Made by a program: the position numbers and the translations under genes. The notes beneath the pieces were generated by a model. That model was given only the letters and a program-made list of their open reading frames with translations, did no database searches and was not told where the DNA came from. A stretch of 34,548 bases of DNA from Candidatus Limnocylindrales bacterium (lineage in GTDB: Bacteria > Chloroflexota > Limnocylindria > Limnocylindrales > CSP1-4). The number at the start of each line of letters is the position of its first letter. Positions within the stretch are counted from its first letter, which is position 1. Shown here in pieces: positions 17,427-34,548 of the stretch. The stretch lies in NCBI GenBank assembly GCA_040514195.1, contig JBEVDC010000141.1:1-34548 (forward strand), in the 5' to 3' direction.

Positions 17427-17645
17427 GGGAAATGCGTTGCGGGGCCTAAATCGCGGTGCTACGCTTCCCGGGCCTCCGCGCCGGGATGCGGGTGGAAGAG
17501 GCCATCGTGACCCCGGCAAGAGCGGGAGGAGCAGCGCGCGACGACCGCCTTGTCGACCGATGTCGACACGGTCTTCCGACGCCGCCCGCATGGGCCCGGA
17601 TTGACCGATCTATCGTCTGAACCCCGAAACAGGGTCGTGCCATCG

Positions 17646-18992
17646 ATGGACGCGAAGCAGGTCTGGCGCGCCGCGCTGGGAGAGCTCCAGGTCTCCCTCT
17701 CACAGGCGAACTTCGAGACATGGTTGAAGGACACCGCGCTCGTCGAAGTCGAGGACAGCACCTTCACCATCGCGGTGCCCAACGGCTTCGCCAAGGATTG
17801 GCTGGAGACCCGCTACCGATCGCTCATCAGTCAGACGCTGGCGCGCGTCGTCGGCTACAGCGTGCAACTCGACTTCGAGGTCCGCGAGGTGGTGCCAGAG
17901 GCCGAGGATGCGACGCCGACCCAGCCGGTCCGACTCGAGCCAAGCCGTGTCGGCGGCGAGGGTCCGTCCGCCAGCCTCAACCCGCGTTACACCTTCTCGA
18001 CCTTCATCGTCGGCTCGGCCAACCGCCTGGCACACGCCGCCAGCCTGTCGGTCGCCGAGCGACCTGGGCATGCCTACAACCCGCTCTTCCTGTACGGCGG
18101 CGTAGGGCTCGGCAAGACCCACCTGATGCATGCCATCGGCAACCAGGTGCTGGCCCGCTTCCCACGCAAGCGCGTCGTCTATGCCACCAGCGAGAAGTTC
18201 ACCAACGAGTTCATCACCAGCATCCAGCAGGGTCGCATCGACGACTTCCGCGCCCGCTACCGCAAGATCGACCTGCTGCTCATCGACGACATCCAGTTCA
18301 TCGCCGACAAGGAGCGGACGCAGGAGGAGTTCTTCCATACCTTCAACGCCATCCACGAGGACGGCAAGCAGATCGTGCTCTCCTCCGATCGGCCGCCCAA
18401 GGCCATCCTGACCCTCGAGGAGCGGCTCCGGAGCCGCTTCGAGTGGGGTCTCATCGCCGACCTCACCGCGCCCGACCTCGAGACGCGCATCGCCATCCTG
18501 CGCGCCAAGGCAGAAGAGAACGGGGTGCCCATCGGCCAGGACGTCCTTGAGTTCATCGCCCGCAAGGTCGTGAGCAACATCCGCGAGCTCGAGGGTGCCC
18601 TGAATCGGATCGTGGCCTACGCCAGCATGGGTGCCATGCCCATCACCATCGACCTCGCCCAGGCCGTGCTGTCGAACGTCCTCTACAACCCGAAGCGCCG
18701 GAGCGTCACGCCCGAGCGGATCGCCCTGGCGGTCTCGGAGTTCTATGGCGTGGACATGGATACCCTGCGCGGCCAGAAGCGCGACAAGGCCATCGTCCTG
18801 CCCCGCCAGGTCGCCATGTACTTGATGCGCGCGGAGACGGACGTCTCCTTGCTCCGCATCGGCGCCGAGCTCGGCGGACGCGACCATTCGACCGTGCTCC
18901 ACGCTTGCGACAAGATCGACCGGGCGAGCCAGGAGAACGAGGAGCTCCGCCGTGACATCGCTGCCGTCCGCGAGCTGATCTACGCTGATTGA
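17646..18992 (+). CDS. dnaA: Chromosomal replication initiator protein DnaA
   Basis: The N-terminus MDAKQVWRAALGELQ is typical. AAA+ Walker A 'GGVGLGKTHL' and Walker B 'LLIDDIQF' are present. Domain IV reads 'VLPRQVAMYLMR...GGRDHSTVLHA'. The ORF-track start at 17550 would add 32 non-conserved residues. Confidence 0.95.
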   Translation: MDAKQVWRAALGELQVSLSQANFETWLKDTALVEVEDSTFTIAVPNGFAKDWLETRYRSLISQTLARVVGYSVQLDFEVREVVPEAEDATPTQPVRLEPSRVGGEGPSASLNPRYTFSTFIVGSANRLAHAASLSVAERPGHAYNPLFLYGGVGLGKTHLMHAIGNQVLARFPRKRVVYATSEKFTNEFITSIQQGRIDDFRARYRKIDLLLIDDIQFIADKERTQEEFFHTFNAIHEDGKQIVLSSDRPPKAILTLEERLRSRFEWGLIADLTAPDLETRIAILRAKAEENGVPIGQDVLEFIARKVVSNIRELEGALNRIVAYASMGAMPITIDLAQAVLSNVLYNPKRRSVTPERIALAVSEFYGVDMDTLRGQKRDKAIVLPRQVAMYLMRAETDVSLLRIGAELGGRDHSTVLHACDKIDRASQENEELRRDIAAVRELIYAD

Positions 18993-19352
18993 AGGCGCCG
19001 GCGGGACCCGCGGCGCCGTGGACATCCGGTCAGGGAAGGTGGACATCCGTGTATTGGCGCGCCATAGGGGGCCCGGTCCGGTGGACGCCGGGCGGTGGTC
19101 GGAGCGTTCGTCCACATATCGTGCCCGCGATGTGCCCGACCTTCCCCATCGCGGCCGCGGTTACGGGCCCGAACAGCAGGTCCGTCCACCCTCGTCTCGT
19201 GCGTGGCCGAGCGTGCGCGTCCCCACCGTCCACAGCATGATGATGATGACGATGGATGAGAAGATAGGAACGAAGGAGCACCACAACCGAGCATCTCGAT
19301 GTGGACGCCCAACTCCGATGTCGCCCAGTCAGCCCGAGGGAGACCGTCGATC
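18993..19352. other. oriC: Predicted oriC (DnaA-box cluster plus AT-rich unwinding candidate) in the dnaA-dnaN spacer
   Basis: Seven GTCCAC-core 9-mers are close to the consensus TTGTCCACA. Their positions are 19017-19025(-), 19038-19046(-), 19080-19088(-), 19108-19116(+, TCGTCCACA, 8/9), 19182-19190(+), 19226-19234(+) and 19300-19308(-). The only AT-rich patch in the window is at 19236-19275 (23 of 40 A/T by my count). Confidence 0.7.
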
Positions 19353-20471
19353 GTGAAGCTATCCGTGATGCAGGAGAACCTGGCTCGCGGCCTCCAGGTC
19401 GTCAGCCGAGCCGTCAGCTCGCGCAGCACGCTGCCCGTGCTGGCCAACGTCCTGCTGCGGACCGAGGACGCAGGGCTCAAACTGACCGCCACCAACCTGG
19501 AGATCGGCATCACGTACTGGGTGCCAGGCAAGATCGAGACCGACGGCAGCATGACGGTGCCGGCGAGGCTCATCACCGACGTCGTCAACTCGCTGCCGCC
19601 CGGTGAGCGGGTCGACCTCGAGTCGGACGGGGCGGCAACGCTCGACCTGCGCTGCGGGCGTCAACGGGCTCACCTGCGCGGCATCGATGCGGACGAATTC
19701 CCTGTCATCCCATCGGCCGGCGAGCGGCCGACGACGCGGATCAGTCAGCGGGTCCTCAAGCAGGCCCTCTCGGAGGTCGTATTCGCGGCCGCCACGGACG
19801 AGGCGCGACCGATCCTGACGGGTGTTCTGACCCGCTTCGAGGGCGACCGGGTGACGCTCGCCGCCGCCGATAACTACCGCATCGCGGTCAAGACGCTGAC
19901 CACGCTGGCGCCGGTCGAAGAGACCTCCATCGTGGTCCCGGCACGCTCATACCACGAGCTGGAGCGCGTGCTGGCCGACAGCGACGATCCCGTCGACGTC
20001 GTGCTGGCTCCGTCGAAGAACCAGATCGTCTTCCACCTCGAGGGCATCGACCTGGTGAGCCGGCTCATCGACGGCCAGTTCCCGAACTATCAGCAGGTCC
20101 TGCCGACGTCGCACACGACCCGGGCCGTGGCGGACCGCGAAGAGCTCCTCAAGGCGGTCCGGTTGTCGGCGCTCATCGCCAGTTCGTCAGCCAATGTCGT
20201 GCGCCTGCGCGTGGACGCGGATGGCGAGCCAGGCATCACCGTGGCAGCAGCCGCCGACGTCGGGGACACCGAGGGGCACGTCGATGCGACGGCTGACGGT
20301 GAGGGCCTGACGGTGGCCTTCAACGCACGCTACCTGCAGGAAGCGCTGACCAACCTGGCGGCGGAGCAGCTGGCGCTCGAATTCCAGGGTCCGCTCTCTC
20401 CCGGCGTGCTCAAGCCGATCGGCGACGACGGCTACGTGCACGTCATCATGCCGGTCCGAACGCCGTCCTGA
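19353..20471 (+). CDS. dnaN: DNA polymerase III beta sliding clamp
   Basis: GTG 19353 gives the canonical N-terminus MKLSVMQENLARGLQVVSRAV, with GAGGGAG ~10 nt upstream. Three-domain length (372 aa) and the typical C-terminus 'YVHVIMPVR'. The ATG at 19299 in the track lies inside a DnaA box. Confidence 0.95.
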   Translation: MKLSVMQENLARGLQVVSRAVSSRSTLPVLANVLLRTEDAGLKLTATNLEIGITYWVPGKIETDGSMTVPARLITDVVNSLPPGERVDLESDGAATLDLRCGRQRAHLRGIDADEFPVIPSAGERPTTRISQRVLKQALSEVVFAAATDEARPILTGVLTRFEGDRVTLAAADNYRIAVKTLTTLAPVEETSIVVPARSYHELERVLADSDDPVDVVLAPSKNQIVFHLEGIDLVSRLIDGQFPNYQQVLPTSHTTRAVADREELLKAVRLSALIASSSANVVRLRVDADGEPGITVAAAADVGDTEGHVDATADGEGLTVAFNARYLQEALTNLAAEQLALEFQGPLSPGVLKPIGDDGYVHVIMPVRTPS

Positions 20472-20493
20472 GCGGCCGAGTCGGTCGACCACG

Positions 20494-21636
20494 ATGCGCG
20501 TCGACCGACTCTCGCTGACCGGATTCAGGTCATACGCTGTCCTCGACCTGCGACTGGGCCACGGACCGCAAGTCGTCGTAGGCGACAACGCCGCCGGGAA
20601 GACGAACCTCATCGAAGCCATCGTCCTGCTTGCGCGGGGGGCCTCCCATCGATCGACCAACGACACGGAGCTCGTCGGCTGGGGCCAACCCTTCGCCCGG
20701 CTCGAGGCCGTCGTGGAACATGGCGCCGGTCGGAGCTCTGACCGCGTCGAGATCACCCTCGAGCGGACGGTGTCCGGCGGCGCACGCAAGCGACTCAGGG
20801 TCGATGGCGTGCCGCGTCGGGCGGTCGCGCTCGCGGAAGCCCTCAGCGTGGTCCTCTTCGCCCCGGAGGAGATGCTCCTCGTGGCCGGCCCGCCTTCGCT
20901 CCGCCGAGCCGCCGTCGATGCCCTGGCCGGCTCCCGGTCGCCCGCCTACGGCCGGGCCATGGCCACGTACGGCAGGGCGCTCCAACAGCGCAACGGGCTG
21001 CTGCGACGGATCCGTGAGGGCGAGGCTGGACCTGACGAGCTGCCGTACTGGGACGCGATCGTGGTCGAGGCGGGTGGTGTCATCGTGGCTGAGCGGCTGA
21101 CGCTCCTGGCCGACCTGGCACCGGTCCTGGCGGCGTCGCATGCTGAGATCGCCCCTGCCGAGCCGACGCTCGAGCTTCGCTACGTGACGAACGCCCCGGC
21201 CCATCCGGATGAGAGTCCCCCGGAGGCCCTTCGCCGCCGCCTCGCAGAGACCGCTGAAAAGGAGCTCTGGAACGGGGCCACCCTGGTCGGGCCACACCGC
21301 GACGACGTGGCCTTCGACCTCGGTGGCCGCGACATGACGACGTTCGCGTCCCGCGGCCAGCAGCGTACGGCCATCCTCTCCCTGAAGCTCGCCGAGCTCG
21401 AGCTCCTGACGGATCCCGTCACCGGGGAGGCGCCGCTCCTCCTGCTCGACGATGTCTTCAGCGAACTCGACCCGGATCGGCGCGCGCAACTGGTTCGCCG
21501 GATCCGTCTGCTGCCGCAGGCCATCGTGACGACGACGACGCTCGACGACCTCGACCCCGCGCTCGTTTCGGCATCCACGACCTGGCACGTCCGGGATGGC
21601 GCTGTCGTCGCCGGTCTCGCTGCCGCCGCGCGCTGA
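20494..21636 (+). CDS. recF: DNA replication and repair protein RecF
   Basis: Walker A 'GDNAAGKTNLIEA', signature 'SRGQQRT' and Walker B 'LLLLDDVFSELD' are present. It occupies the canonical position after dnaN. Confidence 0.9.
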   Translation: MRVDRLSLTGFRSYAVLDLRLGHGPQVVVGDNAAGKTNLIEAIVLLARGASHRSTNDTELVGWGQPFARLEAVVEHGAGRSSDRVEITLERTVSGGARKRLRVDGVPRRAVALAEALSVVLFAPEEMLLVAGPPSLRRAAVDALAGSRSPAYGRAMATYGRALQQRNGLLRRIREGEAGPDELPYWDAIVVEAGGVIVAERLTLLADLAPVLAASHAEIAPAEPTLELRYVTNAPAHPDESPPEALRRRLAETAEKELWNGATLVGPHRDDVAFDLGGRDMTTFASRGQQRTAILSLKLAELELLTDPVTGEAPLLLLDDVFSELDPDRRAQLVRRIRLLPQAIVTTTTLDDLDPALVSASTTWHVRDGAVVAGLAAAAR

Positions 21637-22005: not shown

Positions 22006-24255
22006 ATGGCCGTCCGACTGCACCTGAAGATCGGCCTCGTCCCCGGCGCCGACCGCCTGTCCACATCCCCGGATGTGATCATCCACCACGAGCCGTCGAT
22101 CGGGTCGATCAGCCGGTCGAAGGGCAACCTGTATGGCGTCGTGACCGTGGCTCCCAAGAGCGGCGGGAAGCCTGGCGAAGCGGCCGCGCTCGTCGCCGAC
22201 GCCATCCGCGACCGCTACTACTACGACGAGTCTGCTGGCATCCCGATCTGCCTCGAGAAGTCGGTCCGGACGGCCAACCAGACGCTTCGCCAGGCCCGGG
22301 AGAGCCACGGGCTGGCCCCGGGCGCCATCGGCGCCTGCGTGGCGGTCGTGCGCGGCCATGAGCTGTACGTGGCGACGATCGGCGACGCCGACGCCTACCT
22401 CGTGCGCCAGGCGCGGCTGCTGACGCTGCCCGAGGACGAGCGCGGCGAGGGCTTGCCGGCGAGCGGCGACGTTCACGTCGACGTCTGGCGCGGCGAGATC
22501 GCCGTCGGCGACTCGCTGCTCCTCGTCTCCGGCAATGTCACCCGGACGGTGGGCACGGAGGAGTTCAAGGACGCTCTCGTGACCCTCCACCCACAGTCGG
22601 CCGCGGAGCACCTCCATCACCTCTTCGTGGCGGCCAAGGGCAGCGGATCGGATGCCATCCTCGCGCTCGAAGCGTCCGAGGTGCCGGCCACGCGCGTCGA
22701 GCACAAGCTCGTGCCCGTACGTCCGGCCGAGCCGCTGGCCGGGGCGCGCGACCGATCGCCCATCCCCCTGGCGGACCCCATCGCAGGAGCCGCTGGCGCC
22801 GTCGGCCAGCGGGCCAGCGACCTGAAGACCGGCATCGGCCTGGCCGGTGCCACGATCGTCGACCGGCTCTTCGGCCTGATGCCTCGCCGCCGGCCTCGCT
22901 ACCGGAGGGTCACGCCGCTCGCCTCCAAGCGCGAGTCCCAGCGCCGGGCCGGGTTCGCCGCCCTCGCCTTCCTGGGTATCGTCGTGGCGCTCGGCGTCGG
23001 CCTCTGGCTCGTGGGCGGCGCCCTGCCCGGTCGCGACGACCAGATCACCGACGTCAACGCCGGGGACAATGCCCTGGTCGAGGCCCAGGAGCGGGTCGAC
23101 CAGGTCTTCGGCGAGGGCGACCTCATCGCGGGCGACGCGGTCAAGGCGCAGCGATTGCTGCGTGAGGCCTGGGCCGAGCTCGAGACCGCGGAACGCCTCG
23201 GCGTTGCCGCCGCAGCCCTCCGCCCACTACGGACCGAAGTCGCCAACGGGCTCGATCGCATCTACGGCGTGACACGGGTCACCAGTGAGGTGGTCGTCGA
23301 CCTGACCGCCGAACTCTCTCCGGAGGCCGACATCGTGGACGTCGATCGCGGGCCGGACGGCGCTGCGTATCTCATCGACAAGGCCACCAAGTCCATCATC
23401 CGCGTCGACCTCGCATCGCGCACGGCCAAGGTGGTGGTCAAGGCGGGCGATGGCGCCGGGAAGGGCATCGGCGAGCCGTGGCAGATGACGCTTGGCGGTC
23501 CTGACCTCCTGATCCTCGACCGCGCCGGCGTCCTCTGGCGCTGGCGCCCGTCCGACGCCAAGGGTCGAGGCACGCTGGCCAAGCTGCGGTTGGGCGGCGA
23601 CTCGGCGCTGGGCGACGACATCCGCGACACATCGACCTTCGCGCGTGATGCCGACTCCGGACTCTATTTCTATTACGTCATCGACCCCAGCTCGAAACAG
23701 ATCCTGCGATTTCGGCCGGCCGGCGACGGCAGCGGCTACCCGTCGGCGCCGAACGACTACCTGGCCACGGCGACCGATGTCGCGGGCTATCGCGCCCTGC
23801 GCATCGACGGCGACGCGTATGTCCTCACGCGTGACGGCGTCATCCGCTATCAGAGTGGGCGCGCGGACGACTACGAGCTGGAGCAGCCGCCCGACGACGG
23901 CGACCTTCGGCCGGGTCATGATTACGGCCACTTCGCCATCGATCCCCTCCGACGCGAAGGCGGCATCTGGCTCTGGGACCGCGAGCACGCGCGAGTCGTG
24001 TCGATGGAGAAAGCGAGCGGGGATTACAACGAGCAGTTCCTGGCGGCACTGGGTGCAGAGGCCTTCGATGACGTTCGCGGGATGTTCGTCATCGACCCGA
24101 CCGAGCCGAGCCAATCGAACATCCTGATCTGGGCCGATGGCGGCCGCCTGCTGGCAGCGCCGCTCGTCGACCCGACCGCGCTGCCTTCTCCTTCCCCCTC
24201 GGCCGAGACGTCGCCGGAGCCGACGAAGACGCCCAAGCCGACCAAGAAACCCTGA
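22006..24255 (+). CDS. Membrane protein: N-terminal degenerate PP2C-like domain, one TM helix, large extracytoplasmic repeat domain, Pro/Thr/Ser/Lys tail
   Basis: PP2C-fold blocks are present: 'LYGVVTVAPKSGGKPGEAAALVADAI', 'GACVAVVRGHELYVATIGDADAYLVR', 'GDSLLLVSGNV' and 'GSGSDAILALEA'. The TM helix is 'FAALAFLGIVVALGVGLWLVGG'. The C-terminal ~400 aa has strand-like repeats. The tail reads 'ALPSPSPSAETSPEPTKTPKPTKKP'. Confidence 0.6.
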   Translation: MAVRLHLKIGLVPGADRLSTSPDVIIHHEPSIGSISRSKGNLYGVVTVAPKSGGKPGEAAALVADAIRDRYYYDESAGIPICLEKSVRTANQTLRQARESHGLAPGAIGACVAVVRGHELYVATIGDADAYLVRQARLLTLPEDERGEGLPASGDVHVDVWRGEIAVGDSLLLVSGNVTRTVGTEEFKDALVTLHPQSAAEHLHHLFVAAKGSGSDAILALEASEVPATRVEHKLVPVRPAEPLAGARDRSPIPLADPIAGAAGAVGQRASDLKTGIGLAGATIVDRLFGLMPRRRPRYRRVTPLASKRESQRRAGFAALAFLGIVVALGVGLWLVGGALPGRDDQITDVNAGDNALVEAQERVDQVFGEGDLIAGDAVKAQRLLREAWAELETAERLGVAAAALRPLRTEVANGLDRIYGVTRVTSEVVVDLTAELSPEADIVDVDRGPDGAAYLIDKATKSIIRVDLASRTAKVVVKAGDGAGKGIGEPWQMTLGGPDLLILDRAGVLWRWRPSDAKGRGTLAKLRLGGDSALGDDIRDTSTFARDADSGLYFYYVIDPSSKQILRFRPAGDGSGYPSAPNDYLATATDVAGYRALRIDGDAYVLTRDGVIRYQSGRADDYELEQPPDDGDLRPGHDYGHFAIDPLRREGGIWLWDREHARVVSMEKASGDYNEQFLAALGAEAFDDVRGMFVIDPTEPSQSNILIWADGGRLLAAPLVDPTALPSPSPSAETSPEPTKTPKPTKKP

Positions 24256-24785: not shown

Positions 24786-25594
24786 CTGCCGAGGACGGGC
24801 TCGCCGCGCTCCAGGGCAGCCGACCGCCGGAACCAGAGCCGGATGCGCAGGCGCCAGAAGTCCCGAACGGCGCGAAGCACGACACGCGGGTTGGCGCCTG
24901 ATGCCTGGCCGGCGATCCGTGGATGATGCGGGACGCCGACCTCGGCCAGACTCCGGCCGCGAGCTCGGACCTTGATGAGCAGTTCCGCGGAGAGGAACGC
25001 GCCCCCCGACTCGAGCCGGACGCCCTCCAACGCCTGGCGTCGGAAGAGCTTGCAGGCACAGTCCACGTCGCGCACCGGCAGGCCGTAGAAGAGGCGCAGG
25101 CAGAAGCGGTACGCCCGCGCGTAGGCGAGCCGGATGGTCGGGTCGGCTCGCCGGATGCGGTAGCCGACGACGACCTCAGGCTGGTCGGTCGCCTCCGCCC
25201 GCGCCAGGAGGCGAGACAGGTCGGCGACCCTGAACTGGCGGTCGCCATCGGTGAAGGCGATAAGCGGATGTGAGGCAGTCGCGAAGCCAGTCCGCAGCGC
25301 CGCACCGTAACCGCGGTTGACCGGATGGTGGACGACACGCACGACGCCTGGGTGCTCGGCGGCCAGGCGGTCGGCGATATCTGCGGTGCCGTCGGTGCTG
25401 CCGTCGTCGACCGCGATGATCTCGAATGTGTCAGCCAGGGCCGGCAGCGCCAGGAGGGCCTCGTCGACCAGCGCCTCGATGTTCTGCGCTTCATCGTGCG
25501 CCGGAAAGAAGTACGAGAGCGCCGATACGCGAGGGACGACCAGCGACGGGGCAGCCGCGGGCAAGGCGGCCGACGATGCGGCGGGAGGGGGCAC
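24782..25594 (-). CDS. GT2 glycosyltransferase, polyprenyl-phosphate sugar synthase-like (DPM1/GtrB/Ppm1 type)
   Basis: 'SYFFPAHDEAQNIEALV', 'IIAVDDGSTDGT', 'NRGYGAALRTG', 'FTDGDRQF' and 'DCACKLFRR' match the GT2 family. The start is set at GTG 25592-25594, the first start codon before the conserved core. TTG 25562-25564 is an alternative. The 351-aa track version overlaps the divergent gene. Confidence 0.8.
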   Translation of the reverse strand: MPPPAASSAALPAAAPSLVVPRVSALSYFFPAHDEAQNIEALVDEALLALPALADTFEIIAVDDGSTDGTADIADRLAAEHPGVVRVVHHPVNRGYGAALRTGFATASHPLIAFTDGDRQFRVADLSRLLARAEATDQPEVVVGYRIRRADPTIRLAYARAYRFCLRLFYGLPVRDVDCACKLFRRQALEGVRLESGGAFLSAELLIKVRARGRSLAEVGVPHHPRIAGQASGANPRVVLRAVRDFWRLRIRLWFRRSAALERGEPVLGS

Positions 25595-25600
25595 CGCGGC

Positions 25601-25608
25601 AGTATAGT
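25601..25608. promoter_or_regulatory. Overlapping back-to-back -10-like hexamers between divergent glycosyltransferase genes
   Basis: The plus strand has TATAGT (25603-25608), 7 nt before ATG 25616. The minus strand has TATACT (complement of 25601-25606), 6 nt before GTG 25594. Neither start has an SD, which suggests leaderless transcripts. Pattern-based only. Confidence 0.3.
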
Positions 25609-25615
25609 CGGGGCC

Positions 25616-26854
25616 ATGGCCGCTGCCCCCGCCCTGGCGGAGCCGCCGGAGAGGCCCGTCATGGGCCGGGCCGCGTGGCCCGTGATGGCCACCTTCGCGC
25701 TCCTGGCCGGCGGCTCGGCGCTGCTGTACTGGTGGACGGGTCCCAAGCCGGTCGGGCTCGACGCCTTCGTGCCACTGGCCGATGCGTTCCTTCACGGCCG
25801 CCTCCACGTGCTCGAGCCGATGCCCTGGATCGAGCACGTCGATCGCGCCGCTGGCGGTTGGTACGTGCCTTATCCCCCGATGCCGGCCATCTCGGTCCTG
25901 CCCTTCGTGGCCGTCTTCGGGGCCGGTTTCGATCAGGGCTACGCGGCGGCCCTGATGGGCGGACTGAGCGTCGGCATGCTGTGGCTGATCCTCGGCCGGC
26001 TCGGGGTGGCGCCGCTGCCACGCCGCTCGCTGGTCGCTGCCTTCGCCGTGGGCAGCGCGCTGTGGTGGGCGGCCGGCATGGGCACGTCCTGGCTCTTCGC
26101 GGGCGTCAACGGCGTCTTCTGGTCCTTGCTGGCGCTGAGGCTGGCGCTCGACCGGCGCTGGCCGGTGGTGGCGGGGCTGTGTCTTGGGTTCGCGGCGGCC
26201 TCGCGGCTGCCGATCGGGCTGACGTTACCCCTCTACCTGGCGCTCTACGCCGGTGTCGAGGTCCGGCCGCGGCTGGCTCTTCCCGATCGGCACAAGATCC
26301 TGGCCGCCGGCCTCGTGCTGGTCGGCGTGGCGATCCCGGCCATCCTCGTCGCCCTCTACAACGTGGCCCGCTTCGGCAGCCCATTCGATTTCGGGTACGA
26401 GAAGATCCCGGGCGTGCTTCAGGAACCCTGGTACCGCGACGGGATCCTCTCACTGAGCTACATCCCGCGCCACGTTCACACGATGTTCCTGCGCGGCTTC
26501 GACTTCGCCGACGGCTTCCCATGGTTCCGGCCGAACTGGACGGGGCTGGCGCTGACCTTCACGACGCCCATCTACTTCTGGCTCATCAAGCTGCGCCGAC
26601 GAGAGACGTTCGTCGTCTTCGGCTGGATCGCGATCGTGCTCGCCTTGCTGCCCATCATCACCCACGGCAACGTCGGCGAGACGCAGTTCGGGTATCGCTT
26701 CAGCCTGGACGTGGCGCCCATCCTGTGGATCATGCTGGGCATGCTCTTCGCCAGGCGGATCTCGTTGCCAGCCAGGCTGGCCATCTTCGTCGGGATCCTC
26801 GTCCATGCCTACGGCATCTACGTCATCACGGTCCTCGACTTCGTCAGCTACTGA
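25616..26854 (+). CDS. GT-C-fold integral membrane glycosyltransferase (ArnT/PMT-like, family unassigned), paralog A
   Basis: Multi-TM protein with an early extracytoplasmic loop 'ADAFLHGRLHV...WYVPYPPMPAISVLPFVAVFG' and the C-terminal motif 'QFGYRFSLDVAP'. It is clearly paralogous to the next gene. ATG 25661 is an alternative start. Confidence 0.65.
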   Translation: MAAAPALAEPPERPVMGRAAWPVMATFALLAGGSALLYWWTGPKPVGLDAFVPLADAFLHGRLHVLEPMPWIEHVDRAAGGWYVPYPPMPAISVLPFVAVFGAGFDQGYAAALMGGLSVGMLWLILGRLGVAPLPRRSLVAAFAVGSALWWAAGMGTSWLFAGVNGVFWSLLALRLALDRRWPVVAGLCLGFAAASRLPIGLTLPLYLALYAGVEVRPRLALPDRHKILAAGLVLVGVAIPAILVALYNVARFGSPFDFGYEKIPGVLQEPWYRDGILSLSYIPRHVHTMFLRGFDFADGFPWFRPNWTGLALTFTTPIYFWLIKLRRRETFVVFGWIAIVLALLPIITHGNVGETQFGYRFSLDVAPILWIMLGMLFARRISLPARLAIFVGILVHAYGIYVITVLDFVSY

Positions 26855-26862
26855 CGCCCCCA

Positions 26863-28188
26863 CTACCAGCCCAGGACGATGCCCCAGTAGACGCCCCAGG
26901 CGTTGATGGCGATCGAGGCGATGATCAGGGTGACGGTCCACCATCGGACGCCATAGCGGGCCAGGCCGAGCGTCACCAGGAGCAGGCCGAAGGGCGCGGC
27001 GTCGTTGCTGAACCGGTAGCCGAATTGCACCCAGCCCTGGCTGAAGTGCATGACGTTCATGAGCATCACGGCGCCGATGGCCAGCACCGAGCCGAGGACG
27101 ATCCGGCGCCGCCAATCGCTGATGACGACGGGAACCGCCAGCAGCCAGGCCGGGCTGGTCAGGAACAGGCTCATGCCCAGCCGGTCCGGGCGGAGCAGAG
27201 GGCATGCCTGATCAAGGAGACCGAGTCCGCACTCCGGGCGGACCTCCGGCAGCCAGGCCGACATGATGAGCAGGTTCTGTGGGATGTAGCGGGGATCCTG
27301 GAGCGCCCATTCGCCGGGGTGATAGGTGATGCCCTGGAGGGCCGGAAAGAGCTGAGCCAGGAGGCCGCCCGGAACCGGTGTGTATTCGGTCTGGTAGAGG
27401 TGCTCATACCCCGGATGGAACAGCTGCCCGCTGGTGGCCAGGTTGTACGCCAGCAGGAGGAGTACCGCGATGGCCGCACCGATGCCAGCCGCGAGGCCGC
27501 GCCGAAGGACAGAACCGCCGCCCCCGACGAGCGCGAAGAAGGGGGCTGCGAGGACGGTGGTCAGACGAGCGGTGGCCGCCAGCCCGAGCAGCAGGCCTGC
27601 GACGACCTGGCGCCGGTCGATGGGGCTGCTCGAGGCCTCGGCAGTCGCCGACCGCCGATCCGCATCGAGAGCCGCCGTGATGGCCAGCAGCAGGCAGGTC
27701 GAAGCCACGACATGGGCGAAGTACCAGGTGCTGCCCAACATCCCTGCGTACCAGGCGACGGTGCCGAAGCCGTAGAAGATGGTGGCCAGGATGGCCACCA
27801 GCGGGTCCGTCGTCAGGCGCCAGACCATGCGGTACGCGAAGCCAAGGTTGAGCCCGCCGAGGACCGCCGCCACGAGGGCCGCGTCGGACGCCAGCCCGAA
27901 GGCCGCCACGACCGGCAGCAGCACGATGGCCGGCAGCGGCGGGAAGGGGATGAGGGCGCGGCCCTCGGCGATCGGGTAGAGGTCCTGGAAGTAGCCGTTC
28001 TGGAACTGGCCCTCGCTCACCGGCCACGGGATCCACGCCCGACCCTGCAGGAAGGCGTCGGCCTGCCAAACGAAGTGGTTGTACATGTTCTGGCGGGCGG
28101 GATTGCTGAAGACGTAGACGACCACGCCGAGGACGGCGAAGACGAGCATCAGCCAGCGTGGGTCGACAGTGGCGAGCAGGTGCCGCAT
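26863..28188 (-). CDS. GT-C-fold integral membrane glycosyltransferase, paralog B
   Basis: 'ADAFLQGRAWI...ALIPFPPLPAIVLLPVVAAFG' and 'QFGYRFSNDAAP' mirror paralog A. The start is chosen at ATG 28186-28188 (MRHLLATVDPRWLMLVFAVLG), just before TM1. ATG 28347 is an alternative. Confidence 0.65.
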   Translation of the reverse strand: MRHLLATVDPRWLMLVFAVLGVVVYVFSNPARQNMYNHFVWQADAFLQGRAWIPWPVSEGQFQNGYFQDLYPIAEGRALIPFPPLPAIVLLPVVAAFGLASDAALVAAVLGGLNLGFAYRMVWRLTTDPLVAILATIFYGFGTVAWYAGMLGSTWYFAHVVASTCLLLAITAALDADRRSATAEASSSPIDRRQVVAGLLLGLAATARLTTVLAAPFFALVGGGGSVLRRGLAAGIGAAIAVLLLLAYNLATSGQLFHPGYEHLYQTEYTPVPGGLLAQLFPALQGITYHPGEWALQDPRYIPQNLLIMSAWLPEVRPECGLGLLDQACPLLRPDRLGMSLFLTSPAWLLAVPVVISDWRRRIVLGSVLAIGAVMLMNVMHFSQGWVQFGYRFSNDAAPFGLLLVTLGLARYGVRWWTVTLIIASIAINAWGVYWGIVLGW

Positions 28189-28245
28189 GCGGGCGACGGG
28201 ACCGCGGCCGGATCGGTCGGCCGGCGAGGTGCCGGCGGGTGCCGT

Positions 28246-28254
28246 TGCTATACT
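28246..28254 (+). promoter_or_regulatory. Extended -10-like element (TGcTATACT) in the divergent spacer before the giant glycosyltransferase gene
   Basis: ttgctatact: TG at 28246-28247, one base, then TATACT at 28249-28254. This is one of very few AT-rich hexamers in the window. Pattern match only. Confidence 0.3.
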
Positions 28255-28385
28255 CCCCTCCACCTCGTCGCTCGTTCTTGGAGGCCGGTCGGCTGTTGAC
28301 GACGCCCGGGGCGGGTGCACCCGATCGGAGCCTCGGAGCGTCGGCACGCTCGGTCCCGGCGCCGACGGCCGTCCCGGCCCTGACC

Positions 28386-31300
28386 ATGCTGCTGCTGGCC
28401 GCGCTGGCCCTCCGCCTCATCATCGCATACGTCCTGTTGCCCAAGTCCGGCTTCGAGACCGACCTCGGGACGTTCACGGCCTGGGCCTTGCGCATGGTCG
28501 ACGTCGGCCCCGGCGGCTTCTACGCCGAGCCTGGCCTGTCCGACTACCCGCCGGCCTACATGTACGTGCTCTGGCTCCTCGGCAGCCTGGGCAAGATCCT
28601 CGGCGCCGCCAGCGGGACAGGGGTCGAGACGACCACGGCGCTGCTCAAGATCCCGCCGATCCTGGCCGATATCGCCTGTGGCTGGTTGCTTTACGTCCTG
28701 ACTTTGCGCTGGTTCGGCGACCGTCCCAGGGCGGCCACGCTGGCCATCGTGGCGGCATCGCTCTATCTCTTCAATCCGGTGACCTGGTACGACTCGGCGA
28801 TCTGGGGCCAGGTCGATGCCATCGGAGCGCTGCTCTCCCTGGCCACCGTTGCCCTGCTCATCGACGGCCACGCCGAGGCGGCGACGGCGATGGCCGTCGT
28901 AGCTGGCCTGGCCAAGCCGCAATACGGCGTCGTCCTGGTGCCCATTCTGGCCGTGGTGCTGTTGCGACGGCACCTCTTCCAGCCCGGAAGCGGACCGCGC
29001 GTGACCGCCGGCCCAGGTTGGTATCGGACGTGGTGCGACCGTGAGACCGGCGTCTGGCGGCTGATCTCCTCAGCGGCGGTCGGCGCCAGCCTGCTCTTCC
29101 TCATCACCGCGCCCTTCGGCATGGACCTCCCGCACCTCATCGTCCAGTACGGCAGGGCCGCGGCCACGTATCAGTATCTGACGGTCAACGCGTTGAACCC
29201 TTGGGCCCTGGTCGGCGTCGGCGACCAGCAGCCGATGGCAGAGGCCGGTTTCGGCCACTGGCCGCCCGACACGGTACCGCTGGTGGGGCCCGTGCCGGGT
29301 GTCGTCGTCGGGACGGCACTCCTGGCCGTCGGATTCCTGATCGGCTTGGCCCTCCTCGCTCGGCGCGGCGATCGCACCGCCATCCTCCTGGCGACCGCCT
29401 ACCTCTGCCTCGCCTTCTTCATCCTGCCCACACGAGTCCATGAGCGGTATCTCTTTCCCATCTTCGCCTTCCTGCCCTTGCTGGCCATCCTCGATCGACG
29501 GTACCTTGCGGCCACGCTCGTGCTCAGCGCCTCCACGTTCGTCGGCCTGCACGCGGTCTTGAGCACGCCGTTCTGGGCGACCCCGAACCTCGAAGACTTC
29601 TTCTACGGGCCCGCGTTCCGAAGCTACCCCGTCTACCTGGTCAGCATCGCCATGACCGGAGGTGTCTTCCTATTCCTGCTCTGGCGCGTGCTGCGGGCGA
29701 CGCTTGCACCCGAGGCCCCACTGGCCGGTGCCCCGTTGTTCGATGGCTCCGACGCACCCGCCCCCCGAGGGCCGCCCGTGGTCGACACGCCGCCGCGTGC
29801 AGCGGTCGCGCCCGGTGCAGCCGCCCTGGGGGCGGTGACCGACGCGCCCTGGCTCGAGGAGGTCCGTCCACGCCCGGCCCCGACCGAGCATCAAGCCGCT
29901 GCCCTCACGCGGGCCGCCGCTTCGGGCGCTGCTGTCGCCGGACGTGAGCGCACGACCCCTGCCGAGCCGCCGCTTGCTACCGACGAGGAGGCGTTCGATC
30001 CCGGCCCGGGCGTCATCGGTGGCCTGAGTGCCACGCTGCGCCGACAGCTCGGGACGCGGCTGCGCCGCCGTGACCGGAGCGCCGCGCTGGTCGCGGAGAA
30101 GCCTGGCCGTATCGACCGCCTGGATGTCGCGGTCGCGCTCCTCCTCCTCCTGGCCGCGTTGACCCTGCGGGGCTGGCGTGTCGAGGAGCCGTACGACATG
30201 TACTTCGACGAGGTCTACCACGCCCGCACGGCGACCGAGTTCCTGCAGCACTGGCAGTACGGCGAGCCGCCAAGGCGGATCTATGAGTACACGCATCCCC
30301 ACTTGGCCAAGTACATGATGGCGGTGGGCATCATGCTTTTCGGCAACGACGTCGTGAGCGCGACATCGGAGCTTGGCTTCGCGCCGCGCGATGCCGCCGT
30401 CGAGCAGCGCTGGGACGGTATCGGCACACGTTCCGGCCGGGCCGGCGACCGGATCTACGTGTCCGGCCCGGGCAGCGTGCGTGCCTACGATCTGGCCGGC
30501 CGCGATCTACTGGCCGAGATCACTCTCGGGGACGGCGCCGAGCCCGGTGCCCTCGTGATCGAGACGACCGACCATCGACTCCTCGTCGCCGACCTTGACG
30601 GGGGGCTGTGGGCGTTCGAGACGCAGGCGCTCGACGACGTCCGCGCGGGTGATGACCCCGCGACCATGGCGCCGCCCTACCGCCTCGGCGATCTTGGTGG
30701 CCCGGCCCGGGCGATGATCATCGACGAGGCCGGCCAAAGATTGACGGCGGTCACGGACGGTGATCGAGTCGTGGTCTTCGACCTGGTCGAGGGTTCGCCG
30801 GTGGTCGAGGCCGTCGTACCTGGCGCGGCTGACCTAGCGGCTACGACGGGTGGCCAGCGCCTCCAAGTGGACCTGACAGAGGTCACCGACCCGGGCGCGC
30901 TGGCCGACACCGTCGCGGAAGTCTTGGGCGACGACGCCGCAAGCATCAGGGCCATGCTCGTCGGTGCCCAGGGCGTGGTCACCGTGGCCGGGAGCCTCGA
31001 CGCCGACGAAGCCATCAACGTGCAGGAGGCTCTCGACGCCGGCGAGCTGCCCGGCGCCAGCATCGAGAGCGGCGACCTCGTCGCCGTGGCGGCCGCCAAC
31101 GGCCTCGTCCTGCTCGACGCGAACACGCTTGCGCAGGTGGACATGCACTCGTCCGACACCCCGGTCACGGCCGTCGTCCATGTCGAGGGTCCAGCCGAGC
31201 CGACCCTCTACGCCACGACCGGCGAACGGCTCATGCAGATCGAGGTCAAGAAGGGGCAACCGGCCAGCCCGCGCGACGACGTCTGGATGCCTGGCCCGGT

Positions 31301-33878
31301 GCGCGACCTCGTCTACGATCCGGCGACGCAGCTCATCCACGTGCTGGGCGAGAGCCAGGGCGGGGGCGGGTCCACGGTCTACGTGGTCGAGCCCCACGGC
31401 AACGTCGTCTTCGCTGATGCTCCCCTGTCTGCACCACCCGCCGCCTGGGCCCTCGACGCCGACCCGGATCGGCCAAGCCTGGACCGTGAGCAGCTGCTCA
31501 CGATCTCGGCGTCGGGCCAGATGTCGTCCGTCGAGACCGGCCAGCACGCTTTCGGCTGGCGCTTTCCGGGCGTCATCCTGGGCGCTCTGACAGCCGCTCT
31601 CCTCTACCTGCTGGCTCGAATCCTCTTCCGTCGCCGCGAGGTCGGCCTGGCGGTGGCCGCGATCGTGCTCGTCGACGGCATGACCTTCGCCCAATCGCGG
31701 ATCGCCATGAACGATGTCTACGTCGGCGTCTTCATCGTGGCCGCCTACCTCATCTTCGCGCTCGTCTGGCTTGGGACCTGGCGAGGCTGGAGCGCGATGC
31801 TCGTCGGGTTGCCGCTCATCGGGCTCTGCCTTGGGCTGGCGCTGGCAGCCAAGTGGGTCGGGCTCTACGCCGTGGGCGGCATCGTGCTGCTCATCCTCTT
31901 GCGTTCGGCCGTCGGCCGAGGTCTGGCCCTGGCGGCCATGATCGGCATGACCGGGGTCCTCGGTTGGCTGGCGGTCAGCGCGCCGAGCACAAGCACGCCG
32001 GACACCGTGGGACTCGTGGTGGTCACGATCCTGGTCGGCCTCGTGACGGCCATCGGCTTGCGCATGGCATCGGCCAGCACCGTCATCGTCGCGGTCGGGA
32101 CGGCCTTCGCGGTCATCGCGAGCTCGGTCCTGCTGCTCATGCCCGGAAACGGCGTGTTCCTGGTCATCATGATCGGCGTGACCCTTCTGCTGGCCGTGGC
32201 CGTCGTCCTGCGCCCGATTCGCTGTTCGCTCGACGAAGCGCGCTTCGCAGTCGCGGCCCCAGCCGTCCTGGGCATCCTCGGGACCCTGACCGCGATCATC
32301 ATCGGTTCGCGCCTGCCGACGGATGGCGCGGTGACCTCGACCACCCTGCTGGCCGTCTCGCTGGGCTTGGTGGTCACCAGCGTGGCCGTCTACGCCGGCT
32401 TCGCGTTGGCGGGGTCGCGCGGCATGGGACCGTTGGCTGCTGCGCGACCGGCGCCGACCGAGGGCGGTCGCCCGTTGGAACCGGCCTCTCCGCCGCCCGA
32501 CGGCTGGCTGCGACCTGGCTGGCGACTCGGGCTGCCCTGGGTCTGGGCGATCGCCTGCGTGGCCCTCCTCCCGGTCGTGGTCTACGTGATCAGCTATTGG
32601 CCCTGGGTCGAGCTCGGGAATACCTGGTTCGCGGGGTTTCCGGCCGATCACACGGGCCAGACCTTCCTCGCCCTCCAGCAGGAGATGTACAACTACCACA
32701 ACAACCTGCGGGCCACGCACGCGGCCTCATCGCCGTGGTGGGCGTGGCCCTTCGACCTCAAGCCCGTGTGGTTCTACCTCGGCAACCTGGCCGAGGGGTG
32801 GACGGCCGTGACCTACGATGCGGGCAACCTCGTCCTCTTCTGGCTATCCGTGCCGGCCATGGCCTGGGTCGCCTTCATGGCCTGGCGACGGCGCAGCCTG
32901 GCGCTCGCCCTGGTGATGATCGGCTTCGCCTGCCAGTGGCTGCCCTGGGCGCGCATCGATCGGGCCACCTTCCAGTACCACTACTACACGAGCCTGCCGT
33001 TCGTGATCATGGCCATGGCCTACTTCCTGGCCGAGCTCTGGCACGGTCCATCCGCGCGGACCTGGGTCGTCGCGCGCCTGGCTGCGGCGGCCGCCCTCGT
33101 GGCGGTCCCGCTCATGTGGCTCCTTCGTGTCCCGCTGTGCGCCATCTCGGGCGTGGCCCAGGTCAATCCCGGCTCCCAGGCGTGCGGCTACGTGAGCGAG
33201 GCCTTCGTGCTCACCGAACGGGTGGCCGTCTCCCTGGTCATCGTGCTGGTCGGCATCGTGGTCATGGCCTGGCAGGCGCACACGCTCGGCCTGCGCCGCC
33301 GGCGGGCGGAGCTCGAGGCGGCGCCCGAAGGTCGTCTGCCACCAGGCTCCATCTGGTTGTTGGTGACGGCAGTCACGACCGGGGTGGCGGTGGCCATCGT
33401 GCAGACTCGCTTCCCGGAGACACCCCTCGTCACGGCGCCTATCGGGGACCTTGGGCCGTACATCGGCGCCCTGCTCCTCGGCCTGCCTCTGGCCGTCGCT
33501 GCCTGGCTGGTGCTCGGGGCGCGCGATCCGCGCCGATTCGTCATCGGAGCGCTCGGTGCAATGGCCATCTGGTTCGTCGTCTTCCAGCCCGACATCGCGG
33601 CCCTGCCGGTCCCGACCGGCATCGCCCGGCTCTTCCAGACGCTCCCCCTCGCGACCTACAACTACGACTTCCAATTCGCGGTCAACGAGGCCGCTGCGAC
33701 CACGACGAGCCTGTTGAGCATCGAGTCGCTCGCCCTGACCACGATGGTCGCGTTCCTGGTCGGGGCCACGATGTACGCCGTCCGGGCTTGGCGCACAGGA
33801 GGCACGGAGGCGCCGGCCGAGCCGGTCGCCGAGGCACCCGCAGAGCCGGGCACCGAGCTGGACGCGATCCCGCGCTGA
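28386..33878 (+). CDS. Giant (~1,830 aa) fusion membrane protein: N-terminal GT-C module + low-complexity linker + PMT/GT39-like module with inserted soluble domain
   Basis: A single open frame with a coding-type third-position bias. The N module has 'GFETDLGTFTAWA', 'DYPPAYMYVLW' and 'RVHERYLFPIF'. The C module has 'YFDEVYHARTA', 'THPHLAKYMMAVG', 'FGWRFPGVILGALTAALLYLLARILF', 'SSPWWAWPFDLKPVWFY' and 'ATFQYHYYTSLPF'. ATG 28386 is the first ATG before TM1. The track start at 28158 overlaps the divergent gene. Confidence 0.75.
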   Translation: MLLLAALALRLIIAYVLLPKSGFETDLGTFTAWALRMVDVGPGGFYAEPGLSDYPPAYMYVLWLLGSLGKILGAASGTGVETTTALLKIPPILADIACGWLLYVLTLRWFGDRPRAATLAIVAASLYLFNPVTWYDSAIWGQVDAIGALLSLATVALLIDGHAEAATAMAVVAGLAKPQYGVVLVPILAVVLLRRHLFQPGSGPRVTAGPGWYRTWCDRETGVWRLISSAAVGASLLFLITAPFGMDLPHLIVQYGRAAATYQYLTVNALNPWALVGVGDQQPMAEAGFGHWPPDTVPLVGPVPGVVVGTALLAVGFLIGLALLARRGDRTAILLATAYLCLAFFILPTRVHERYLFPIFAFLPLLAILDRRYLAATLVLSASTFVGLHAVLSTPFWATPNLEDFFYGPAFRSYPVYLVSIAMTGGVFLFLLWRVLRATLAPEAPLAGAPLFDGSDAPAPRGPPVVDTPPRAAVAPGAAALGAVTDAPWLEEVRPRPAPTEHQAAALTRAAASGAAVAGRERTTPAEPPLATDEEAFDPGPGVIGGLSATLRRQLGTRLRRRDRSAALVAEKPGRIDRLDVAVALLLLLAALTLRGWRVEEPYDMYFDEVYHARTATEFLQHWQYGEPPRRIYEYTHPHLAKYMMAVGIMLFGNDVVSATSELGFAPRDAAVEQRWDGIGTRSGRAGDRIYVSGPGSVRAYDLAGRDLLAEITLGDGAEPGALVIETTDHRLLVADLDGGLWAFETQALDDVRAGDDPATMAPPYRLGDLGGPARAMIIDEAGQRLTAVTDGDRVVVFDLVEGSPVVEAVVPGAADLAATTGGQRLQVDLTEVTDPGALADTVAEVLGDDAASIRAMLVGAQGVVTVAGSLDADEAINVQEALDAGELPGASIESGDLVAVAAANGLVLLDANTLAQVDMHSSDTPVTAVVHVEGPAEPTLYATTGERLMQIEVKKGQPASPRDDVWMPGPVRDLVYDPATQLIHVLGESQGGGGSTVYVVEPHGNVVFADAPLSAPPAAWALDADPDRPSLDREQLLTISASGQMSSVETGQHAFGWRFPGVILGALTAALLYLLARILFRRREVGLAVAAIVLVDGMTFAQSRIAMNDVYVGVFIVAAYLIFALVWLGTWRGWSAMLVGLPLIGLCLGLALAAKWVGLYAVGGIVLLILLRSAVGRGLALAAMIGMTGVLGWLAVSAPSTSTPDTVGLVVVTILVGLVTAIGLRMASASTVIVAVGTAFAVIASSVLLLMPGNGVFLVIMIGVTLLLAVAVVLRPIRCSLDEARFAVAAPAVLGILGTLTAIIIGSRLPTDGAVTSTTLLAVSLGLVVTSVAVYAGFALAGSRGMGPLAAARPAPTEGGRPLEPASPPPDGWLRPGWRLGLPWVWAIACVALLPVVVYVISYWPWVELGNTWFAGFPADHTGQTFLALQQEMYNYHNNLRATHAASSPWWAWPFDLKPVWFYLGNLAEGWTAVTYDAGNLVLFWLSVPAMAWVAFMAWRRRSLALALVMIGFACQWLPWARIDRATFQYHYYTSLPFVIMAMAYFLAELWHGPSARTWVVARLAAAAALVAVPLMWLLRVPLCAISGVAQVNPGSQACGYVSEAFVLTERVAVSLVIVLVGIVVMAWQAHTLGLRRRRAELEAAPEGRLPPGSIWLLVTAVTTGVAVAIVQTRFPETPLVTAPIGDLGPYIGALLLGLPLAVAAWLVLGARDPRRFVIGALGAMAIWFVVFQPDIAALPVPTGIARLFQTLPLATYNYDFQFAVNEAAATTTSLLSIESLALTTMVAFLVGATMYAVRAWRTGGTEAPAEPVAEAPAEPGTELDAIPR

Positions 33879-34026
33879 CCGCTCCGATGGTGCCATAGCG
33901 CACCACCTGGCCGGTACCACCGGGTCGGGACCGCATGGGACCGCTCGGCTATGGCGACGCCCTGCCTTGCCCCCGAGACTGGCGGTCCGAGCCGGAGATC
34001 CCGGTTTGTCGCCTCGCCACGGATCG

Positions 34027-34548
34027 ATGATGTCGAAGCTCGCCCGCCTTCTCGGCCCGATCGCCCTGTCCGCCACCCTGCTGGCCACGCTCGTCCCCGT
34101 CGCCGGCGCGACCGACGACCTGACCGTCGAGCAGGCCGAGGCGAAGGTGGTCTCACTGCTCAACGCGCAGCGCACGAATGTCGGCCGCGTGGTCCTTAGG
34201 GTCGATCCGCGATTGTCGGCCATCGCCCGCGGTCGCTCCGAGGACATGGCGTCCAAGGGCTACTTCTCACACCAGCAGCCCGATGGTGACTGGGCCTGGG
34301 ACCTGATGACGGCGGCCGGCATCCGGTGGTTCGGGGCGGGCGAGATCCTCGCCTGGAACACGTGGGGCACGCTGGCCGACTCGGCCACATCGGCCAGTCG
34401 TCAATGGCATGACTCGCCCGGCCACTACGCCATGCTGACGAGTGCGGACTACAACTACTTCGGTGTCGGCCTGGCCGTCGACGGCAGCGGCAAGAAGCTC
34501 TGGACGGTGGTCTTCATGAAGGGCCCCGACCGGACCGGCGCCAGGGCG
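34027..34548 (+). CDS. Secreted CAP/SCP-domain protein (YkwD-like), 3' end outside window
   Basis: Not in the ORF track because there is no stop within the window. The frame from ATG 34027 is open to base 34548. It has a signal peptide (MMSKLARLLGPIALSATLLATLVPVAGA). 'MASKGYFSHQQPDG', 'WHDSPGHYAMLTSADYNYFGVGLA' and 'LWTVVFM' are CAP-domain blocks. Confidence 0.75.
   Translation, partial: MMSKLARLLGPIALSATLLATLVPVAGATDDLTVEQAEAKVVSLLNAQRTNVGRVVLRVDPRLSAIARGRSEDMASKGYFSHQQPDGDWAWDLMTAAGIRWFGAGEILAWNTWGTLADSATSASRQWHDSPGHYAMLTSADYNYFGVGLAVDGSGKKLWTVVFMKGPDRTGARA

Follow-up and report, generated by a model that had tools for sequence, protein, structure and literature searches.

Protein O-mannosylation in bacteria is poorly understood outside mycobacteria, and a multi-subunit protein O-mannosyltransferase (PMT; family GT39) has been proposed only in a preprint of July 2026 (bioRxiv 10.64898/2026.07.15.738315). 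In that work the mycobacterial Pmt (Rv1002c/ML0192c) was assigned three partners on the basis of predicted interactions, phenotype correlations, and a pull-down: Rv0051/ML2687c, a GT87-like glycosyltransferase of the GT-C fold, said to be without catalytic residues and likened to Pmt2; Rv3212/ML0810c, a periplasmic eight-bladed propeller modelled above the Pmt active site and proposed to act as a substrate selector; and Rv1209/ML1065, a DivIVA-like bridge. The same preprint mentions that Paenibacillus has translational fusions of GT39 with GT87 enzymes (UniProt V9WAU2), and reports that mycobacterial polysaccharide GT-C enzymes also use propeller or periplasmic partners, such as AftB with a beta-propeller (10.64898/2026.07.15.738315). 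The enzymes that elongate actinobacterial O-mannose glycans are not known (PMC11727336), and an evolutionary study of 2016 described Alg6, Alg8, and Alg10 as seemingly confined to eukaryotes, their distant relatives in prokaryotes being PMT and DUF2029 proteins (PMC4973528). Here, we describe a giant gene (28386-33878, plus strand) whose predicted product carries a GT39-type module, a second GT-C module, and a beta-propeller in one chain. The gene lies on a stretch of 34,548 nucleotides (nt), hereafter the window, from a Candidatus Limnocylindrales bacterium of soil (Chloroflexota; NCBI GenBank assembly GCA_040514195.1, contig JBEVDC010000141.1, positions 1 to 34,548).

A scan of the window for open reading frames (ORFs) showed the plus-strand frame to be without a stop from 28158 to 33878 (1906 codons). 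Translation from the ATG at 28386, which is the start in the closest homologues, gives a product of 1830 amino acids (aa), numbered from this ATG throughout; the stop codon ends at 33878. The guanine plus cytosine (GC) content at codon positions 1/2/3 was 0.71/0.52/0.87, like that of other real genes of this window of ~70% GC. By our own arithmetic, a random frame at the base composition of the window would meet a stop every ~52 codons, and 1906 open codons would arise by chance with a probability of ~1e-16. An alternative start is the TTG at 28296, with a GGAGG ending 11 nt 5' of it, which would add a 30-residue peptide ('MTTPGAGAPDRSLGAS...'). This TTG may be the true start rather than the ATG, because the homologues P0004, P0010, and P0012 carry the same peptide at their N-termini and the GGAGG lies upstream. 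Simple sigma-70 promoter and intrinsic-terminator scans of 28100-34100 gave no match, such scans being uninformative for this organism. The gene product is one polytopic membrane protein with a predicted ~30 transmembrane (TM) helices, in which the following parts were distinguished, all on the plus strand:

28296-28385: possible N-terminal cytoplasmic extension ('TTPGAGAPDRSLGAS..PALT' kept at the N-terminus of P0004, P0010, and P0012; GGAGG upstream)
28386-29705: N-terminal ALG6-like GT-C module (N-module), aa 1-440, ~12 TM helices (AlphaFold2 fold, Foldseek, family profile, Pfam Alg6_Alg8)
29706-30101: Ala/Pro/Arg-rich low-complexity linker, aa 441-572, predicted cytoplasmic (composition, alignment variability, Lys/Arg count)
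30102-30350: PMT TM1 (aa 576-594), then the beginning of extracytoplasmic loop 1, which bears the catalytic Asp-Glu and the 'THPHLAKY' helix (translation, motif conservation)
30351-31535: WD40-like beta-propeller, aa about 656-1050 (~400 aa), with a ~60-aa alpha/beta subdomain (AlphaFold2, Foldseek)
31536-31985: PMT core from TM2 onwards, aa 1051-1200, with R1059 ('FGWRFPG'), 'SRIAMND', and 'AAKWVG' (Pfam PF02366, Pmt1 alignment)
31986-32657: additional hydrophobic stretch, aa 1201-1424, separating the PMT match from the PMT_4TMC match (hydropathy)
32658-33140: PMT C-terminal four-TM region, aa 1425-1585, with 'SSPWWAWPFDLKPVWF' and 'RATFQYHYYTSLPF' (Pfam PF16192, Pmt1 alignment)
33141-33878: C-terminal extension with ~5 further TM helices, aa 1586-1830 and the stop codon (hydropathy; conserved outside loop 'FQPDIAALPVPT...LATYNYDFQFAVN')

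The fusion of the two GT-C modules is genuine and conserved, and not an assembly artefact, because it recurs in many full-length homologues and as a single frame in related genomes. Among 5.8 billion proteins searched, at least 120 were full-length homologues, with lengths of 1635-1946 aa and identities of 41-79%; those with a named source were nearly all from Chloroflexota / Ca. Limnocylindria, and the labels given by the sources did not go beyond 'phospholipid carrier-dependent glycosyltransferase' and 'Gpi18-like mannosyltransferase / PMT' ('Gpi18-like' being a label of JGI). A genome scan using one genome per species gave 13 loci, all from Chloroflexota metagenome-assembled genomes (MAGs), CSP1-4 among them, and in 12 of the 13 a single open frame ran across both modules. 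The exception, locus L008 (6001-7465), had its N-module broken by ~5 frame switches within 1.4 kb. Because amino acid identity stayed high within each piece (58-96%), the breaks in L008 are likely indel errors of the assembly and not signs of a pseudogene or of a gene split in nature. In principle, two genes could have been merged by an overlooked stop, a frameshift, or a chimeric join in the linker, the linker being GC-rich, low in complexity, and error-prone in assembly, and L008 does show frame switches. However, these switches fall inside the N-module, away from the module junction, the full-length homologues come from many independent datasets, and a distant Actinomycetota clade carries the same fusion. 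The family consensus also has no conserved internal Met/Val start before the PMT module. An artefact is thus effectively refuted. The original prediction, made from the letters of the window alone, had taken the frame 28158-33878 as coding from its third-position GC bias and had proposed two GT-C halves separated by an Ala/Pro/Arg-rich linker. This outline stood: all the peptides that it quoted are in the translation, each half gave a significant GT-C match, the same fusion was found in related genomes, and the stop or frameshift that it had named as a possible objection was absent in all but one of 13 independent assemblies.

We then turned to the N-terminal module. An AlphaFold2 model built on an alignment of 43 diverse sequences had a predicted local distance difference test score (pLDDT) of 93 and a predicted template-modelling score (pTM) of 0.93. 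Its best fold match in the PDB, at Foldseek rank 1, was yeast ALG6 (6snh; template-modelling scores TMq 0.74 and TMt 0.69, E 9.5e-7), followed by PIG-U, STT3, ArnT, PimE, Gpi14, and ALG3; PimE (9dm5) was weaker than ALG6, with a TMq of 0.56. A family profile of the N-module and 37 stand-alone-length relatives also matched ALG6 (E 8.1e-8). This match depended on restricting the profile to the N-module: a profile of the whole protein retrieved only PMTs from the PDB sequences, and a single-sequence phmmer search of the N-module against them had no match at E<=10. The Pfam model Alg6_Alg8 (PF03155) gave a marginal 27.2 bits on the N-module alone (cut-off 25), its best stretch being model positions 304-388 of 482; PF03155 was not listed in the whole-protein Pfam scan, and some homologues carry a precomputed match to it. 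Pfam PF09594 (GT87, PimE/DUF2029) had no match to the giant protein at E<=1, and scored 26-31 bits in the relatives P0166, P0251, and P0480. On the structure model, the N-module is a GT-C enzyme fold with ALG6 as its nearest solved relative. The earlier description of this half as 'PIG-V/Gpi18/DUF2029-type' was correct as to the broad group of GT-C enzymes that use polyprenyl-phosphate sugars, and missed its closest relative, which is ALG6/GT57 and not PIG-V/Gpi18. The N-module family comprised 3854 representative clusters at E<=1e-3, and its stand-alone members matched Alg6_Alg8, GT87, PIG-U, PMT_2, and Mannosyl_trans4 only marginally; because all these matches are marginal, we place the family between the curated GT-C families.

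The conserved residues of the N-module suggest that it is an enzyme. D26 (nt 28461-28463) aligned with D87 of the ALG6 chain, which corresponds to native D69 on the assumption that the 562-residue chain carries 18 extra residues as an N-terminal tag; D69 is the catalytic base of ALG6 (PMC12653191). In the profile alignment, 'DYPP' of the N-module paired with 'DYPP' of ALG6, and 'VHERY' with 'QVHEK'. Besides D26, the conserved polar residues were DYPP at 53-56 (nt 28542-28553), D95, D136, Q142, D144, K177, Q179, R195, R350, and H352-E353-R354 (HER, nt 29439-29447). D26, D95, Q142, D144, K177, Q179, R350, H352, E353, and R354 showed no or almost no variation, in the fused proteins as well as in the 48 stand-alone-length relatives examined. 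Because the ALG6-type catalytic Asp and the His-Glu-Arg motif are retained, the N-module is probably itself catalytic. The alternative is that it acts as a non-catalytic scaffold or dimer partner that stabilises the PMT or recruits substrate, so that the protein makes a single sugar transfer. This role has been proposed for the mycobacterial partner ML2687c/Rv0051, which is described without catalytic residues and by analogy to Pmt2 (10.64898/2026.07.15.738315), and the fold matches of the N-module include PIG-U, a GT-C-like protein that is non-catalytic. We consider a scaffold-only role unlikely in view of the invariant D26, aligned with Asp69 of ALG6, and of the other conserved residues. Moreover, the relative P0126 (495 aa, 52% identity to the N-module) is encoded by a separate gene with unrelated neighbours, and this unrelated gene context implies that a protein of the N-module type can function autonomously.

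The linker and the topology place the two modules relative to each other. The linker (A31, P19, R14, and G12 of 132 residues) was the least conserved part of the family, with a column identity of 0.08-0.35 and a gap fraction of 0.2-0.6, and the spacing from HERY to FDE ranged from 181 to 304 aa in 117 homologues. The loop between the TM helices that flank the linker contained 17 Lys/Arg. Hydropathy, Lys/Arg counts, and the AlphaFold2 helices gave an N-module of ~12 TM helices with both ends cytoplasmic. From there, the predicted order is the linker inside, PMT TM1 running from inside to outside, loop 1 with the Asp-Glu (DE) motif and the propeller outside, and then 'RRRE' inside. Because this topology, which follows the positive-inside rule, puts each of the catalytic loops outside, we infer that both lie on the same extracytoplasmic side of the membrane.

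The C-terminal module passed two Pfam models specific to GT39: PMT (PF02366) at aa 1053-1172 with 54.2 bits (gathering score 22.7), and PMT_4TMC (PF16192) at aa 1425-1585 with 52.2 bits (gathering score 32.4). The general ArnT-like model PMT_2 gave just 17 bits on the giant protein. The module aligned to residues 138-251 and 536-671 of yeast Pmt1, and a profile matched Pmt1 at E 4.6e-6. The motif F-D-E-V-Y-H-A-R-T was nearly invariant in 110 homologues, its Asp-Glu lying in the first extracytoplasmic loop after TM1, and the Actinomycetota clade has this motif in a position collinear with the TM1/loop-1 segment. R1059 ('WRFPG') paired with Pmt1 residue 138 and was nearly invariant in the family; a conserved Arg at the end of loop 1 and start of TM2 (yeast Pmt1 R138) is important in PMTs. 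Other parts of the module were more variable. Two helices at about aa 1201-1260 were missing in most homologues (gap fraction 0.65-0.75). The C-terminal extension, with a conservation of 0.5-0.6 at aa 1711-1770, had no matching Pfam family and was absent from the ~1180-aa Actinomycetota clade, in which P0251 stops after PMT_4TMC.

A soluble beta-propeller is inserted in loop 1 of this module, between the DE motif with the 'THPHLAKY' helix and 'WRFPG' at TM2. Its AlphaFold2 model (pLDDT 93.4, pTM 0.91) had 28 beta-strands, corresponding to ~7 blades, and Foldseek returned 1716 PDB matches at E<=1e-3, the top ones being the WD40 proteins Rsa4, TLE1, Tup1, and G-beta (E 1e-13 to 1e-11). The insert is acidic, with 63 Asp/Glu vs 22 Lys/Arg, and contains no Cys. 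It was present, with a length of 372-505 aa, in every homologue whose flanking motifs could be located. The Pfam propeller repeat families (WD40, PQQ) had no match to the insert even at E<=10, and the insert of the Actinomycetota relative P0422 reached Pfam PQQ_2 (28.5 bits vs 27.6). The original prediction had placed the loop-1 Asp-Glu at 30207-30212, which is exactly D608-E609 of 'FDEVYHART'. It was also right that 30100-33878 is PMT-like and that the protein has two GT-C halves; what it overlooked is the propeller, which interrupts the supposedly continuous PMT module at about 30351-31535.

A PMT-like module need not act on proteins, and both GT-C modules could instead make or decorate a cell-envelope glycopolymer or glycolipid, as do the GT-C enzymes of mycobacterial lipomannan/lipoarabinomannan (LM/LAM) and arabinan, with the propeller as a scaffold or carbohydrate-binding domain. 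NCBI calls the homologues just 'phospholipid carrier-dependent glycosyltransferase', the giant protein falls far under the cut-off of the Pmt equivalog model, two more GT-C-like membrane proteins are conserved neighbours, and mycobacterial polysaccharide GT-C enzymes such as AftB have propeller partners too (10.64898/2026.07.15.738315). The GT39-specific models PF02366 and PF16192 were nevertheless passed while PMT_2 gave just 17 bits, the DE motif is conserved together with the Arg that pairs with R138 of Pmt1, and the three-part composition is specifically that of the protein-mannosylation complex. Taken together, these observations make an envelope-glycan role quite improbable.

We favour, with moderate confidence, the reading that the giant protein is a single-chain O-mannosylation holoenzyme in which a GT39 core carries its own propeller as a cap and is joined to an ALG6-like, probably active GT-C partner. 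It builds on the ORF and its conservation, the fold and family matches, the conserved residues, and the logic of the topology, and adds to these a proposed set of donor sugars, a protein acceptor, a position of the propeller over the active site, and an activity of the N-module. The GT39-type C-module, using its loop-1 Asp-Glu, would transfer a hexose from a polyprenyl-phosphate sugar to Ser/Thr of exported proteins at the outer face of the membrane, and family precedent suggests that this hexose would be mannose. The propeller in loop 1 could serve as an acceptor-selecting cap, the role of the MIR domain in eukaryotic PMTs and the one proposed for Rv3212 in mycobacteria. The N-module, tethered by the disordered cytoplasmic linker, would form the partner GT-C of a pseudo-dimer, like yeast Pmt2 or mycobacterial Rv0051, and would most plausibly use polyprenyl-phosphate-hexose to attach a second hexose, either onto the O-linked sugar or onto these same substrates. 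Two sugar transfers would then be coupled in one chain.

Several points weigh against this holoenzyme reading. The NCBIfam Pmt equivalog NF058602 scored 28.9 bits vs a cut-off of 800, and because of this gap the C-module is classed, from its profile scores, as a distant GT39-type relative and not as an orthologue of the characterised actinobacterial Pmt. No polyprenyl-phosphate-mannose synthase gene was found among the window genes. The propeller has ~7 blades as against 8 in Rv3212, and the mycobacterial partner GT-C is described without catalytic residues, whereas the N-module keeps the ALG6-type Asp and HER. Finally, the N-module and the propeller are likened to Rv0051 and Rv3212 by their descriptions and not by sequence.

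To see how widely the parts are distributed, we compared the architectures of the more distant homologues. A second clade of proteins of ~1170-1240 aa, named as Actinomycetota MAGs (P0397-P0466, e.g. P0251, P0403, P0422), was found in a search with P0251 (1181 aa) to have a collinear N-module, propeller, and PMT, without the C-terminal extension. The N-module was also fused to DUF6541/YfhO-type modules in proteins of ~1200 aa (P0472-P0515, e.g. P0480 of 1215 aa), and P0475 (1746 aa) joined it to a DUF6541 and a TMEM260-like module. Because it is found fused to PMT, DUF6541/YfhO-type, and TMEM260-like modules, the N-module recurs, by domain assignment, as the fusion partner of GT-C enzymes of several types. 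A broader proposal, which we put forward only tentatively, is that the ALG6-like N-module family may be a general active partner of protein O-glycosylating GT-C enzymes and, in the PMT fusions, the extracytoplasmic enzyme that extends bacterial O-linked mannose. The three-part machine would then be ancient and common to Chloroflexota and Actinomycetota, and the N-module family a candidate prokaryotic root of the ALG6/8 enzymes of the endoplasmic reticulum (ER) lumen. If this is true, the three-part fusion would be Rosetta-stone evidence for an ancient machine of Pmt, GT-C partner, and propeller.

Within the window, 13862-21636 is the neighborhood of the replication origin; because of this setting, the giant gene lies in a conserved core chromosomal region. 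The genes of the origin region and the two that precede the giant gene are:

13862-14896, minus strand: jag
14893-16215, minus strand: yidC
17550-18989, plus strand: dnaA
19299-20468, plus strand: dnaN
20494-21633, plus strand: recF
25616-26851, plus strand: multi-TM hypothetical protein, a distant paralogue of the 26863-28188 gene (tblastn: orthologues in 7 loci)
26863-28188, minus strand: divergent multi-TM hypothetical protein, a possible GT-C-like glycosyltransferase (tblastn: adjoins the giant gene in 11 of 13 loci)

The window also holds FtsEX, an S41 protease, a sigma/anti-sigma pair, and a VanW protein. In the product of a plus-strand gene at 9794-11221, a calcineurin-like metallophosphoesterase is joined to a carbohydrate-binding module, CBM96. 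The order recF, PP2C-like 749-aa protein, BFN-domain protein, two multi-TM hypothetical proteins, and giant gene was syntenic in related loci. In the 749-aa protein (22006-24252, plus strand), whose synteny is conserved, the N-terminus matched PP2C phosphatase weakly and the remainder was without a family match. Downstream of the giant gene, a plus-strand gene for a protein with a CAP/SCP domain (Pfam CAP, 52.5 bits) runs off the end of the window (34027-34548). By eye, the N-terminus of this protein resembled a signal peptide, and the protein is putatively secreted.

The locus may hold further GT-C-like enzymes, because the 26863-28188 protein weakly matches the LA_3751/LA_3752 putative glycosyltransferases of NCBIfam (E 3e-9, below the cut-off). 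This protein had 2541 homologues, nearly all unnamed; those named were from Limnocylindria/Chloroflexota, bar one labelled Ca. Sulfotelmatobacter. Its family profile retrieved no relevant sequence from the PDB, and its candidacy as a homologue of the N-module was not supported, the hhalign probabilities of 0.8% and 15% in two comparisons not being significant. With the 25616-26851 protein as a tblastn query, the position of the 26863 gene was matched in four other loci at 25-29% identity; the 25616-26851 protein itself had no Pfam or NCBIfam match. A 957-aa ORF at 25426-28299 (plus strand) was discarded as spurious: it overlaps both of these conserved genes, the first of them in a different plus-strand frame and the second on the other strand, and each has, read in its own frame, a third-position GC of 0.87-0.88 and syntenic orthologues. 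Long false ORFs of this kind are common at 70% GC.

Among known systems, the mycobacterial Pmt complex resembles the giant protein in three components: a GT39 core bearing a DE motif, another GT-C as its partner, and a beta-propeller outside the cytoplasm. The mycobacterial components are separate subunits from Actinomycetota, whereas in the Chloroflexota protein all three are in one chain and the propeller is inside loop 1 of the PMT. No counterpart of the DivIVA-like bridge was seen in the giant protein, where the cytoplasmic linker may replace it. Paenibacillus V9WAU2, known from its mention in the preprint, likewise has a partner GT-C in frame with GT39. The original prediction had stated that no characterised example of such a fusion was known; this holds for biochemistry only, since GT87-like/GT39 fusions were already mentioned in the 2026 preprint. 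The fused family is abundant in databases, and this kind of machine is foreshadowed by that one preprint.

Yeast Pmt1-Pmt2 (PDB 6P25) has in common with the giant protein the loop-1 DE motif and, on the reading favoured above, paired GT-C units and a soluble domain (lumenal in yeast) capping the active site. The partner in yeast, however, is another GT39 on a separate chain, as against an ALG6-like partner on the same chain, and its capping domain, a MIR beta-trefoil, sits in loop 5, as against a propeller in loop 1. Yeast ALG6 (GT57, PDB 6SNH) is the Dol-P-Glc:Man9GlcNAc2-PP-Dol alpha-1,3-glucosyltransferase, and its catalytic Asp, DYPP, and His-Glu align with the N-module. It is a stand-alone eukaryotic ER enzyme with 14 TM helices and a lipid-linked oligosaccharide acceptor, whereas the N-module has ~12 TM helices. 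The Pgf system of Streptococcus mutans (PgfS, PgfE, PgfM1, PgfM2; PMC12041528) also carries out extracytoplasmic protein O-glycosylation and requires two GT-C enzymes together, but these are separate proteins of other families, transfer N-acetylhexosamine (HexNAc) sugars, and have no propeller. Because the partner module of the giant protein retains an ALG6-type active site, whether a partner GT-C makes a second sugar transfer becomes a testable question, and the whole machine could be studied, structurally and biochemically, from a single-gene construct. As a natural fusion, it would provide independent evolutionary support for the mycobacterial Pmt complex and extend that complex to another phylum.

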